Below, in pieces: positions 5,171 through 9,600 of a stretch of 64,000 nucleotides of DNA. The notes beneath the pieces are model-generated. The model saw only the letters and a list, made by a program, of their open reading frames with translations, was not told where the DNA came from and made no database searches. Numbering within the stretch: the first letter of the stretch is position 1; the number at the start of each line of letters is the position of its first letter. A program made the position numbers and the translations under genes. This DNA is from Prorocentrum cordatum (lineage: Eukaryota), in assembly GCA_963575745.1 (NCBI GenBank), contig CAUYUJ010000180.1, forward strand, positions 1-64,000, in the 5' to 3' direction.

Positions 5171-8100
5171 CGACGCACTCCCGATGGCAACTGACGATGG
5201 CAGGTGGCATGAGAGGTGGCACTGCTGAGTTTTTTTGGTAGTTCAAACATCCTCTCGGACGCAAGCTGTCGCTCGCCCGCGCTGCCAGATCCGAGCGCAG
5301 ATCCGAGCGGCGACGCACCGCAAGCGTCTCCGTTTAAAAAGTGCCATAGCGCTGGCAGAGCCTGGCGCCCTTCTCCTCTTGCGATTCCCGCCCTACGTGG
5401 ACGCCCAGAACCCCTTCGATGCTAGCCAACTGTCGTTGATTTCCTCCAAATCGTACTTCTGCCAACCGCCGCGCACAACTGTTGGATCTGCGCGCGCAAC
5501 GCGGGTGCTCGGCGTGGCCGGAGCGCCAGCGCGACAATCCCATGTGGCCAGCGGCGCATGCACCAGCAGCCGCATTGGCCCCGGCACCAGCATCGGAGTT
5601 GGCTGGCCATCAATGCCTTCAACCAAAGGGTACGCGTGGAGAGCACGGAGAGCAGCGCTGGCAGAGCCTGGCGCGTTCCCCGCGCGCCTGGCCCAACTCT
5701 GCTTCCTGACGCATTCCTTGCACTGGTAGGGGGTGGGCGCCCCTCCGAATTGACCATGAATCGCGACATGGACGCAACGTTCGTGCACACCTCGCCCGTG
5801 AAGTCGTCCACGATCTCCGTGCACTGGGACAGCGGGCGCGCGACGGCACCCGCAAAGGTGCAGTCCAGACTCTCCGTGTGCCTGGCGAGACTGTCGCGCA
5901 CCACACCACCGAACGCATCGACCACATCAGGGGCAGGCCAGTACAGTTACCCCGCATAGTAAGGCTGCGCACCCTTCCCAAGGGCACCCTTACTTCGGCC
6001 CATCCTTGGCCACTTTCCTTGGCCGCGCCCCACTCGAAAAGCTTCGAAACGGCCTTCCAAGGCCCTTGCATCCTTATCGTGCATTCTTCTGATACAGGTC
6101 GACTGTACAGGAACGATGGCCTCGTGTACGTGGACAGCATGCCACTGTCTGAAGCCTGTGGGCACACAGCTTCCAGTCAGGGTGGGCTCAGACGGCGAAG
6201 CATCACGACATGGGGGAACTTGATTGCCTCATCGAGCAGCTGGCCGTCAGCAGCGACCCGAACATATTCGTCTGAGAGGCCTTAAATGGCCGCGTACTCC
6301 GCTATGAGAGCGTCGGCCTTGTTTCGAGTCGACCAACCAGTGTACTAAGCGCGTATCCGATTGGCCTGCAAAGGCCCTCCAGTGACGCCGAGGCGCATTG
6401 GTGGATTCGCCGAGGCAGGCGAGCCCAGCCATCACGTGGTCGCAGACTTATCCTTCTTCAGCGCGGCCAGCCCGCACGTGCGGAAGAACGTGTAGATCTC
6501 CTCAGCGGTATGCGTCTCGCCCAGCCGCAAGAACATCTCGCCGAGCGTCAGACGCGGCTCGTAGCGCACCCACTCGAAGCCAGGAGCGTTCACGCAGGGC
6601 GCAATGCATCGATTCACCTCCGCTTCCCAGTCTGGGTGGAAGTCGGAGAAGGCGTCCCGAGGCGGAAACTTCGGGTTCGCTTGCAGAGCTGCAGTGATCT
6701 GCACTCTGATGTCCATGCTGGCCATTCGCTCGTTGAGCTGGCCCGCCTCGCCGAATACCTGCCCTTCAATGTTGGGTCCAACTGGTGTCCCGCCTTTGCA
6801 GCGGTGCCACTGCTGGTTCTCTCACTCATAGGCGCTGGCACAGCCTGGTGCTTTGCGCACGAGTCTCCACCCCATGCGTTTCTGGTCCAGCTTGACAACT
6901 TCGCCTTTGTGCAGCGGCGCCAGCTGTGTCAACACAGCGAAACGCTGTTAGTCTGTGACCAGCTTACCCTTGAAGATCTTCTGGTGCACGGTGTCCAGCA
7001 AGACCTCGCGCAGCGTGCTTCACCCGCAGCCTTGGTCGCCTGTCCATGGCGCTGGCTGCAGGAGCCGACTTCAGCGCAGTGATTCCGAGAGACCTGGCGC
7101 TTGCCTGTTCGGGCAATGTGCGCGGCGGCTGGGCGGCGCCCGTCGTGCTGGCAGAGCCTGGCACGGGCCCCCCAGTGCGGCAGATGAGCATCGGTCCCGT
7201 ATCAGGTACCACTCTCCCATTCTTCGCCATATCTTTGTATTGCAGAAGCGCATCGGCTCGCATGCGCGCAAGCATCGCGAGTACTTAGACGTCGGCAGGG
7301 ATGCCCACAGAGCGATGGCGGACATGCTCAATCCCGCGCATCAGCATGGCGCGAGCCTTTGCCGCCTCCGCACTCTCTGGCATTGCGCCCCCTTTCGTGA
7401 TTCCTCACGACCCAAGGAGCGACGCCTGCCAGCGAGCCGGACAGTGCGAGCAAAGCGGAAGCGGCTTCCGCCGACCGTTCGCGCTACGTCTCAGAGCCCT
7501 CAGCGCATGCTGCGTCCAATTTTGCAAGCGCATCTGGAGCAGCATCACATGCGCGAACATCCTCCTCGCCTCCCCAATCTGCGATGGAACCTTCTGCGTC
7601 GCCGCCTCCCGGCTGAATGAGCGACTCGAGCGGCGGTTGCTCGGGCGCCGCCGCAGGCGCCATGGGTTCCAATGGGCTGGCAGAGCTTGGCCCCGACTCC
7701 TGTGCTACCTCAGAACCTGGGCCAGCATTTGCCTTTCGCTTCGCGAGAGGCTTGCGCGACGGCTGCGGGGGGCTCTGCGGTGGCAGCGATGGGCCCCCAT
7801 CGTCTCGGCGCAACGGTGGGCTCGACGAGCTCGGCCTTGGGCCATGGACTGGCACTGGGGCCTGCGCCAGCGGCGGCGAGACCGCTTCCGCCGCGGGCTG
7901 AGATCCGCGGATGATGCGTATGCACCGTACTGCGTTGGCGTCGCCAGAGGCGTTGTCGATCTGAGACCCAGGAACGGTACGGTGCACAGTTTCTCGGCCC
8001 TGAGGAGCCCAAAAACTTTGCACCGCTCCACGTTGGAGCGGGGCCCGAACGGAGTCCAGGCATGGTGCGGTGCAGGGGCGCCGTTCTCGTCTGAGAGAGG

Positions 8101-8456
8101 CTTTGGCCGGAGGCGGAGCCGATGGCTGGACTACAGGCGGCGAGGCCAGAGTCGCTGCCTGCGCGCCGAGGCCGCTGGGGCAGGAAGCGAGGCCGCAGCG
8201 TCGGGACAAAACGGGCCGACGCTGAACTCGCGCGGGGACCGGGGAAGGGGAGGCTCGGCGGCGGCCAAGAGGGGGGTGATGACTAGGGATGGCGTGGGCC
8301 ATGCTATCTCCCCAGATTCCATGGCGCCTCTTCCCATCTCATGCCCAGGCCCCCCCCCCCCCCCCGGGCCGCGCACATGCCGCCGGCCATGATTTGCGCC
8401 CGCCCCTCTCGGACGCCCCCCTCTTGGCGCCACCGAGAAGGGGAATATCGCGTGCT

Positions 8457-8832
8457 GGAGGAGGAGGAGGAGGAGGAGCGGGGGAGCGAGGAGGAGGAGG
8501 AGGAGGAGGAGGAGGAGGGAGGAAGGAGGAGGGGGATGAGGGAGGAGGAGAAGGAGGAGGAGGAGGAGGAGGAGGAGGAGGAGGAGAGCGAGGAGGAGGA
8601 GCGAGGAGGAGGAGGAGGAGGAGGAGGAGGAGGAGGAGGAGGAGGAGGAGGAGGAGGAGGAGGAGGAGGAGGAGGAGGAAGGAGGAGGAGGGAGGAGGAG
8701 GAGGAGGAGGAGGAGGAGGGAGGAGGAGGAGGAGGAGGAGGAGGAGGAGGAGGAGGAGGAGGAGGAGGACGAAGAGGAGGAGGGAGGAGGAGGAGGAGGA
8801 GGAGGAGGAGGAGGAGGAGGAGGAGGAGGAGG
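8457..8832. repeat. (GGA)n microsatellite inside the decayed ORF
   Basis: Direct reading. Confidence 0.95.
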
Positions 8833-9600
8833 CGGAAGCGCCTGCGCAGAGCGGGCAGGGCCCGGCTCCGGCTTCGGGGGACCGGTGCGATCGCTTCTGC
8901 GGCGCCCGGCTCCTCTTCGGAGCTCCCCGGCCGGGAGGCCTCCCGTCGTCGGGCTCTTCCTCCGAGGTCCGGCATGGGGGCGCCCGCCTTCGCCAGCGCT
9001 TCACGACAGCAAGCTCGATCCTCGATCCCTCGAACTTTCCCTGGAAGCTCGATCCTCGATCCTTCCCTCGAGCTTCGAGCTTCGAGCTTCGTCCTCCTTC
9101 GCGATCGGGAAGGAGCTCTTTCCCTCGAACCGCGTGGGGCAGGAAGCCGCAGGCCTCCGCTTCCATGCCCTGCGGAGGCTCCTTGAAGCAGGCCGTGACC
9201 GTGTGGGGCGCGTCACGATCCCTTGCGTGCTGATTGCGGGTGAGCTCGAACTCCAAGGGTTTGCCGGAGTACCCATCCACATAGACCAACGCGTTCTGCT
9301 CCATGTAGTGGTTGCCGTGGTTGCGCTGCGGGGATTTCGAGGTCTGCCAGGCTACGCGCGCAGTCCTCAGAACCTTGATCGAGGCATCGATGCTGGCCAC
9401 TCGTGACGCAGGCAGGGGCGAGCTCCACGAATGCCGCTCTGGAGCCCTCGCCGTGCTTGAACTGCTGCACGTCTGCTCCCGCGACCCGCCACGTGGAGCG
9501 CCGCTGGCAGGGCCCGGCGGCGAGGGGGCACTCGCGGACAGGCGCGCGCCATCCGCTGACATCGCGAAGAGGCGGTGGAGCTGATGGTGCGTCAGGGCTG

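Follow-up and report, generated by a model that had tools for sequence, protein, structure and literature searches.

A 64,000-nt stretch of Prorocentrum cordatum DNA (assembly GCA_963575745.1, contig CAUYUJ010000180.1, positions 1 to 64,000 of the forward strand; hereafter the window) carries, within and beside one decayed open reading frame (ORF), six copies of a small hairpin. This hairpin is under selection for pairing, is strand-specific relative to the gene that bears it and independent of the reading phase, and occurs in several gene families and not only in coding sequence. An earlier note on the window had proposed that selection acts on nucleic-acid structure rather than on the encoded peptide, and this proposal is strongly supported by covariation among copies on different contigs, by paired residues in 145 protein representatives and by phase switching at orthologous sites.

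The hairpin and its copies in the window

Written on the + strand of the window, the element is a strand-specific hairpin family of about 20-22 nt with four parts. The outer stem of 4-5 bp is free in sequence but paired, and is mostly closed by G-C and C-G. An invariant T faces an invariant TG, giving a T-G wobble and one bulged base. The inner stem is G-C / N-N' / C-G with a covarying N-N', and the loop consists of the three bases AGA. The mRNA of the host gene bears the complement, C-A-G-N-CUCUG-N'-C-A. The predicted minimum-energy RNA fold comprises the outer stem, the T-G, one bulged base, a 3-bp inner stem and the triloop. Along genes the copies are spaced at one per 200-500 nt.

The pattern NNGC-TGGCAGAGCCTG-GCNN occurs on the + strand at 5349, 5655, 6832, 7145, 7674 and 9501, six copies in one orientation as the earlier note had described (Table 1). 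The 12-nt core is exact at 5353, 5659 and 7149, has one mismatch at 6836 and 7678, and two at 9505. Allowing at most one mismatch, the window holds five core matches against 0.68 expected, a number attained by 0 of 100 shuffles; for the 16-mer with at most three mismatches the figures are seven and 1.66 (0 of 100 shuffles). The arms vary and remain complementary (gcgc/gcgc twice, gcgc/gtgc, gtgc/gcac, gggc/gccc and cgccgc/gcggcg), again as noted earlier, with the single G-T pair of copy 6832 being that of gcgc/gtgc. Flanks of the copies are mutually unrelated, and the boundaries of the unit are sharp at 20 nt.

A covariance model run with filters off, whose training set included the six window copies themselves, scored these copies at 26.1-36.7 bits and its next best match in the 64 kb at 16.3 bits. 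The seventh 16-mer match (8851-8866) lies on the same strand and in the same decayed unit between complementary 4-bp arms and probably represents a degenerate copy. A further possible degenerate copy, described earlier at 5279-5298, shares 16/20 bases with the element but, at E up to 10, was not reported by the covariance model. At 17230-17360 lies a repeat with tandem units of 23 and 40 nt (GTTGCCCTGGCGGCAAGAGGCAG) that is loosely core-like, and the model did not pick it.

Table 1 Features of the hairpin-bearing unit and its borders in the window
Feature	Position	Strand	Remarks
Hairpin copy 1	5349..5368	+	perfect core, arms gcgc/gcgc, 33.2 bits
Hairpin copy 2	5655..5674	+	perfect core, 36.7 bits, conserved site F
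Hairpin copy 3	6832..6851	+	one loop change, one arm G-T pair, 26.1 bits, conserved site C
Hairpin copy 4	7145..7164	+	perfect core, arms gtgc/gcac, 34.0 bits, conserved site B
Hairpin copy 5	7674..7693	+	one core change C to T keeping a G-T pair, 28.4 bits
Hairpin copy 6	9501..9520	+	two core changes, 6-bp arm, 27.4 bits
Probable seventh, degenerate copy	8847..8870	+	16-mer with 3 mismatches, arms gagc/gctc, 14.3 bits, E 0.22
Possible decayed copy	5279..5298	+	16/20 bases matching, inner pair lost; absent from model output at E up to 10
Decayed ORF	5393..9583	-	in-frame stops, at least four frame changes, (GGA)n expansion
Possible spliced-leader relict	9601..9620	-	last 9 nt identical, first 6 nt 5/6; weak
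A7 run	5226..5232	-	3' end of the unit; possible poly(A) remnant, weak
12-nt satellite (CACTATCGATCT-like)	9850..10276	.	similar repeats at ~4990-5170

Covariation of the stem

Exact 16-mer scans of viral contigs, prokaryote genomes and metagenome contigs gave 23 viral singletons, 120 prokaryote singletons and at least 122 metagenome loci. With duplicates removed, at least two further complementary arm pairs were present in 1 of 18 viral matches, in 13 of 119 prokaryote matches and in 24 of 111 metagenome matches among those listed; controls with slid partners yielded 0-2, 6-16 and 3-10, respectively. The metagenome set is therefore a mixture of chance matches and a real family. To avoid circularity, the family was defined by multiplicity only, as sources with at least two matches to TGNCAGAGNCTG irrespective of pairing. 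Fifteen sources qualified, namely 13 metagenome loci on 11 contigs (among the matches listed), one viral locus and the window, and 0 of the 120 prokaryote matches. Each metagenome contig carries 2-6 copies among the matches listed. The covariance model was not used for counts outside the window, as true copies and chance 16-mers in the loci both score 22-35 bits. Three core variants scanned in the viral contigs (23, 12 and 1 singleton matches) gave no multi-copy source beyond one pair, which is probably due to chance; after removal of duplicates the extra arm pairs were found in 1 of 18 canonical-core copies and 0 of 13 variant-core matches.

The 15 sources, each with at least two generalised cores, provide 39 distinct copies. 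The two arm pairs that lie outside the search pattern are Watson-Crick in 29/39 and 30/39 copies, with all four pair types represented, while arm positions 5 and 6 are paired in 17/39 and 12/39. For the inner pair, formed by core positions 3 and 9, Watson-Crick pairing is seen in 35 of the 39 (GC 26, TA 6, CG 3). In an alignment of 42 rows (A1), with three degenerate window copies and four doubtful rows included, paired cells reach 87.8% compared to 69.1 +/- 1.4% in shuffles (0 of 500 shuffles attain the value) and the covariation score is 0.419 compared to 0.109, slid partners giving 0.05-0.11. The compensatory stems proposed from six copies are strongly supported by this covariation. Within A1 the T-G cell and the loop-adjacent C-G do not vary, and the intervening G-C is changed in one of the 42 rows (to G-U). 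Since they (almost) never vary, these positions are uninformative on pairing; they probably mark sequence-specific recognition.

A core that is partly dyad-symmetric and has 10 invariant or nearly invariant positions might also be expected of a double-stranded palindromic site bound by a dimeric protein, for example one of the type TGGC-N3-GCC. A duplex site, however, requires neither arms that are free in sequence yet complementary (four pair types) nor a covarying inner pair, and the core lacks full symmetry and keeps a strict orientation to genes. We regard such a site as very improbable.

Covariation legible in the encoded proteins

In the phase that encodes P-G-S-A-S, the second position of codons 2 and 4 holds the covarying bases; a G-C pair is accordingly read as GA, C-G as AG, T-A as VD and A-T as DV. 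P-x-S-y-S occurs 41 times in 23 proteins of the family, with 39 pair-compatible instances, one wobble and one other. The 145 further family representatives, one per cluster at 50% identity, contain it 71 times (65 pair-compatible, comprising GA 36, VD 22, AG 6 and DV 1; 2 wobble; 4 other), where 27.6 pair-compatible instances would be expected if x and y were independent and shuffled proteins gave fewer than one. In the other phase the element encodes Q-x-L-y, present 92 times in the same 145 representatives and pair-compatible 82 times (AP 65, ST 9, PA 6, TS 2). At least one such peptide is found in 105 of the 145.

In the protein alignment at least seven sites recur, among homologues that are 29-75% identical. 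Depending on the homologue, sites D and F read PGSAS, PASGS, PVSDS or the phase-shifted QALP, and site B reads QALP in one metagenome locus (L070) and PGSA in the others. The window copies at 9501, 7145, 6832 and 5655 correspond to sites N1, B, C and F, whereas sites A, D and E of the window gene have decayed or are absent. Homologues read RPASGS at N1, which is N-terminal and conserved, and the copy at 5655 stands just ahead of an L-R-x-L-x-x-Y motif, where homologues have PASGS, PVSDS, PGSAS or QALP. The copy at 6832 is orthologous to one in L094, in which site C carries a near-identical 20-mer despite 32% protein identity. The same phase had been claimed for all six window copies; this has meaning only in part, as four of them lie at conserved sites that homologues read as P-x-S-x-S, but the copy at 5349 lies past the stop and that at 7674 within a low-complexity, unalignable stretch of the ORF. 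In the AlphaFold model of one homologue (P0004), three of the four hairpin-coded peptides (48-52, 183-187 and 260-266) lie at a predicted local distance difference test score (pLDDT) below 50.

P, G, S and A abound in the host proteins, and the genome has a high G+C content with trinucleotide repeats throughout, which might suggest a low-complexity motif at the peptide level (a PGSAS linker) or mere chance. The codon choice is, however, identical between copies, one DNA word is read in two phases as unrelated peptides, and copies are also found outside ORFs. The excess of core matches in the window, the covariation in A1 and the pair-compatibility of the peptide variants refute this explanation, to which we assign next to no probability. 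The finding also cautions that PGSAS-type peptides which recur in these proteomes trace a nucleic-acid element and are not protein motifs.

Orientation and phase in other genes

In multi-copy sources all copies lie on a single strand except in L016 and L107, which have one copy per strand and whose copy pairs are probably due to chance. On the eight contigs with an ORF of at least 180 aa, 27 of 27 copies share one orientation relative to the ORF, 19 of them within it and eight outside. The 19 in-ORF copies are distributed between phase 0 (10) and phase 2 (9), so that the fixed phase claimed for the window is refined to two phases, the third being never used. Among the loci examined, the family of the window is encoded only by L070, L080, L094 and L134; the ORFs of L055 and L136 belong to a second family, which shows conserved sites, and in L035, L058 and L106 the copies lie within other long ORFs, for which Pfam gave no match.

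Several of these loci show arrangements of their own. Positions 690-915 of L055 contain 117-nt tandem repeats in the second family with one hairpin each (peptide RAPASGSAGS), and the number of repeats of this type varies among the homologues P0024-P0028. L080 (1-1225) contains two tandem genes of the window's family, both restricted to the N-terminal domain, and the ~270-nt spacer between them carries a hairpin copy at 272-299 with an inner C-A pair. A common leader segment of ~60 nt with a hairpin adjoins the ORF starts in L035 (1402-1470), L112 (260-322) and L122 (150-242). L122 has two tandem copies of it, 65 nt apart, and in L035 the word TTTGGCTCAG, which resembles the end of a spliced leader, stands ahead of it on the sense strand. 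A mobile unit of ~26 nt was considered for these three loci and rejected, as what they have in common is the longer homologous leader segment.

The host gene and its surroundings

The decayed ORF is collinear with ~950-aa proteins of a large family without known domains. P0010 (950 aa), P0021, P0016 and P0004 align through its in-frame stops in frames -1, -2, -3, -2 and -1, and this collinearity over five frame segments confirms that the ORF is indeed a decayed one. The family numbers 764 representatives with an E cutoff of 0.001 and 169 with one of 1e-30, the closest named relative being an uncharacterised protein of Prorocentrum cordatum. Homology to this minus-strand gene ends at a homology-supported stop (5393-5395), and the copy at 5349 lies 24 nt 3' of it, probably in the 3' untranslated region (UTR). 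As read from its sequence, the window gene is a pseudogene copy that still carries six to seven hairpins.

Possibly, and on weak indications, the unit is a retroposed mRNA copy. The decayed ORF aligns collinearly with its homologues and shows no intron-sized gaps, an A7 run stands at its 3' end, and ~20 nt 5' of the start of homology there is a 9-mer of the dinoflagellate spliced leader (sequence from PMC6616646), for which 0.74 matches are expected per window and two were found. The second match to TGGCTCAAG, at 42673, was rejected as a leader since it lies inside a tandem repeat. The full spliced leader has no match within 3 mismatches in the window, and the dinoflagellate spliced leader was not found in 265 loci around viral, prokaryote and metagenome matches. 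Satellite repeats occur on both sides of the unit, which therefore sits inside a satellite.

Positions 6930-6975 of the minus strand (GTAAGC...CTAAC...CAG) resemble a small spliceosomal intron; homologues align straight through this stretch, which is probably not an intron in the window copy. A (GGA)n expansion of ~380 nt (8457-8836) and a C17 run (8350-8366), both within the decayed ORF, occupy a low-complexity region that is variable among homologues. The window as a whole (1-64000) is microsatellite-rich, with G+C of 0.43-0.67; a G+C of 59.7% is given for the Prorocentrum cordatum genome in PMC10666404. Dense trinucleotide arrays (GTA, GAG, GAT, TCC, TGT, CGT and others), many of them 300-1200 bp long, yield long spurious ORFs on both strands. 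A unit of 21 nt (GCCCACAGAGGCCCCAAGCGC-like) forms a 1.7-kb array at 61214-62966, in which higher-order periods measure 82, 103 and 163 nt.

Searches for known domains, folds and RNA families

Pfam searches with the window ORFs (35 of the 53 listed ORFs, at least 250 aa) returned sub-threshold chance rows only. Eleven of 12 hairpin-bearing locus ORFs had no Pfam match, and assignment of the twelfth to a bacterial histidine kinase was rejected as a chance match. For the host family, two protein-atlas searches gave no usable match and a PDB sequence search nothing below E 0.4. The AlphaFold2 model of P0004 has a mean pLDDT of 65; Foldseek found no PDB match to it at E up to 0.001 (best E 0.65), the rows at E 1.6-3.8 including several OB-fold binders of single-stranded DNA (ssDNA), which are not significant, and VIA-align wide gave a best Z of 3.7. 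None of 4227 Rfam families, among them the iron-responsive element (IRE) and the histone stem-loop, matched the window at gathering scores. At E up to 5, region 5200-9700 gave seven weak matches, six of which overlap no copy; the seventh, snoU82P at 5659-5711, overlaps copy 2 and scores 15.2 bits, where the gathering score is 42 (E 1.7). In the searched literature the motif strings met only primer-like matches in unrelated papers, and keyword searches on dinoflagellate hairpins, palindromes and introners turned up no account of the element.

Hairpins read by ssDNA-binding enzymes present invariant unpaired bases beside a sequence-free stem, and the element does the same. It could accordingly be thought of as an ssDNA signal for replication priming, rolling-circle or HUH-type nicking, retroposition or packaging of a mobile unit that includes these families. 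Its strand-specific dispersal every 200-500 nt, the very large size of the family with its decayed copies, the possible retroposition of the window copy and a predicted DNA hairpin stability that is the same on both strands are all consistent with such a signal. However, the hairpin-bearing ORFs examined by Pfam contained no domain of the Rep, HUH, helicase, reverse transcriptase or capsid type, the fold searches were empty, the viral contigs had no multi-copy matches save the one probable chance pair, and many nicking sites per element would be self-destructive. The association with Rep/helicase or HUH-nuclease elements considered in the earlier note thus found no counterpart, neither such a gene nor any other mobile-element hallmark being present in the ORFs examined, and we regard an ssDNA signal as improbable.

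A proposed tag on transcripts or a possible selfish palindrome

We propose, tentatively and with somewhat less than even confidence, that the element is a single-stranded hairpin, specific to one strand and recognised by a protein, which the transcripts of these families carry. It would fold as a single strand, in the transcript rather than in DNA, and would offer a docking site to a putative protein that reads the invariant unpaired bases plus the shape. As such it might be a common post-transcriptional tag on the mRNAs of these families, bearing on translation, stability or localisation. The encoded PGSAS- or QALP-type peptides would be tolerated in coding sequence because they fall in disordered loops. 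We favour the transcript because the orientation of the element follows the gene, in ORFs and outside them, because the carrier sequence looks like mature message, and because control of gene expression in dinoflagellates is described as acting mostly at the post-transcriptional level (PMC12787238). The consulted portion of that source names no hairpin or stem-loop in protein-coding mRNAs save that of the spliced leader.

The main rival, which we hold to be unlikely, is a selfish mini-palindrome, a eukaryotic analogue of the Rickettsia palindromic elements (RPE) or of the bacterial repetitive extragenic palindromic (REP) sequences, copy-pasted and surviving where the peptide is harmless, with the stem kept for the spreading machinery and not for the host. 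The sharp 20-nt boundaries with unrelated flanks, the presence of copies in unrelated ORFs and outside ORFs, and the location of the encoded peptides in low-confidence loops argue for it. So does the variable presence of sites (the window is without the GPGSAS site of L080, P0001 and P0010, and L070 is without site C), though the sites missing from the window may be mere pseudogene decay. Yet the orientation relative to the gene is as strict outside ORFs (8/8), where no peptide filter operates, and the same sites are kept across homologues of 29-75% identity with in-situ pair switches. Target-site duplications are absent, the flanks being inverted and not direct, and no candidate transposase is associated.

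A number of observations weigh against a transcript tag, and some of them speak for the selfish alternative. The unrelated genes of L055 and L094 share an identical 24-nt stretch, with 8 flanking bases beyond the core, which hints at copy-and-paste over in-situ evolution. The avoidance of phase 1 (0/19), which also counts in favour of a selfish palindrome, means that the peptide level constrains the copies too. Rickettsia palindromic elements, generally regarded as selfish, are described as showing the same pattern of conserved sites, compensatory changes and loop locations. In the 39-copy, A1 and protein tallies paralogues and orthologous sites were counted repeatedly, so that the counts are not independent events. 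In two short loci, L105 and L121, the four copies share the strand of the longest ORF (91 and 187 aa; their reality is doubtful). The predicted RNA hairpin is more stable on the strand complementary to the mRNA (-8.8 vs -6.7 kcal/mol, in 39/43 copies), and as DNA the hairpin is equally stable on both strands. Non-Watson-Crick arm cells lean slightly to the mRNA strand (13 G-U against 6 A-C), a difference that is not significant.

Taking the transcript tag and the selfish palindrome together, we consider it an even chance that the element represents a new class in dinoflagellates, consisting of short strand-specific structured elements in the 5' leaders, coding sequences and 3' ends of lineage-specific families, with covariation legible in the proteins (PGSAS/PASGS/PVSDS and QALP/QSLT/QPLA). 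Such a class would either make up the cis-code of a new regulon that acts after transcription, or be the first counterpart of REP/RPE in eukaryotic nuclei, with a hairpin-reading enzyme of its own. A covarying 20-nt hairpin present several times per transcript provides a concrete bait for a reader protein, and with the covariance model the genes that carry the tag can be mapped in the genome or transcriptome of any dinoflagellate. Should the element instead be selfish, it would extend in-frame palindromic elements from Rickettsia to eukaryotic nuclear genes and would show nucleic-acid constraints shaping protein loops.

Comparison with known systems

Rickettsia palindromic elements are bacterial, ~100-150 bp long and inserted in-frame in coding genes, where they are kept at orthologous sites with compensatory changes, encode surface or loop peptides and are generally regarded as selfish. 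The element described here is likewise a hairpin lying in-frame within coding genes and maintained at orthologous sites via compensatory changes. It differs in being only 20-22 nt long and in residing in eukaryotic (dinoflagellate-type) nuclear genes, so that it has neither the length nor the Rickettsia sequence of an RPE, and in occurring in two phases, also outside ORFs, and in strict orientation to the gene.

Bacterial REP sequences, which go with RAYT transposases, lie outside genes, bear a head of GTAG or CGTC and have a link to an HUH transposase (PMC3733652). REP (20-40 nt) and the present element are both imperfect multi-copy palindromes with a short conserved unpaired signature beside the stem. 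Unlike REP, the element is not extragenic, 19 of its 27 copies on the long-ORF contigs being inside ORFs; neither GTAG nor CGTC stands as a head in A1, and conservation does not extend into the flanks outside the arms. No RAYT-type transposase was among the Pfam matches of the ORFs examined. Of the REP/RPE-like character suggested in the earlier note, the element shows in-frame insertion in a coding gene with a maintained hairpin, as in RPE, but neither RPE length nor the extragenic location and head of REP.

Dinoflagellate introners, a kind of intron, bear inverted repeats of 8-20 nt and direct repeats of 3-5 nt at either end (PMC10666404). They and the element have in common short inverted repeats linked to genes of free-living dinoflagellates, including Prorocentrum cordatum. 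The element, however, is 20 nt long as a whole, lacks direct repeats and is placed in coding sequence that is read through. In contrast to introners and to MITEs, the miniature transposable elements with inverted repeats, its inverted arms vary and its conserved part is the centre.

Among mRNA elements, IRE, Smaug recognition elements and Roquin decay elements combine a stem of free sequence with a conserved loop or bulge and occur several times per mRNA. Smaug elements are also found inside ORFs, and one and the same mRNA element may be active from the 5' UTR, from within the coding sequence or from the 3' UTR. The short free-sequence stem, the conserved loop or bulge and the several copies per mRNA are shared by our element, whose loop and bulge sequences match none of these. 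An IRE is defined by a CAGWGH hexaloop, a 5-bp upper stem and a 5' bulged C on the mRNA strand. Here CAGAGC is confined to the complement of the ORF strand, core position 3 covaries with position 9 and not with position 10, and there is no bulged C, arm position 3 being paired in 29/39 copies. While it fails the defining features of IRE, REP, RPE (in length) and MITE/introner, the element is kin to short hairpin cis-elements and to in-frame palindromes.

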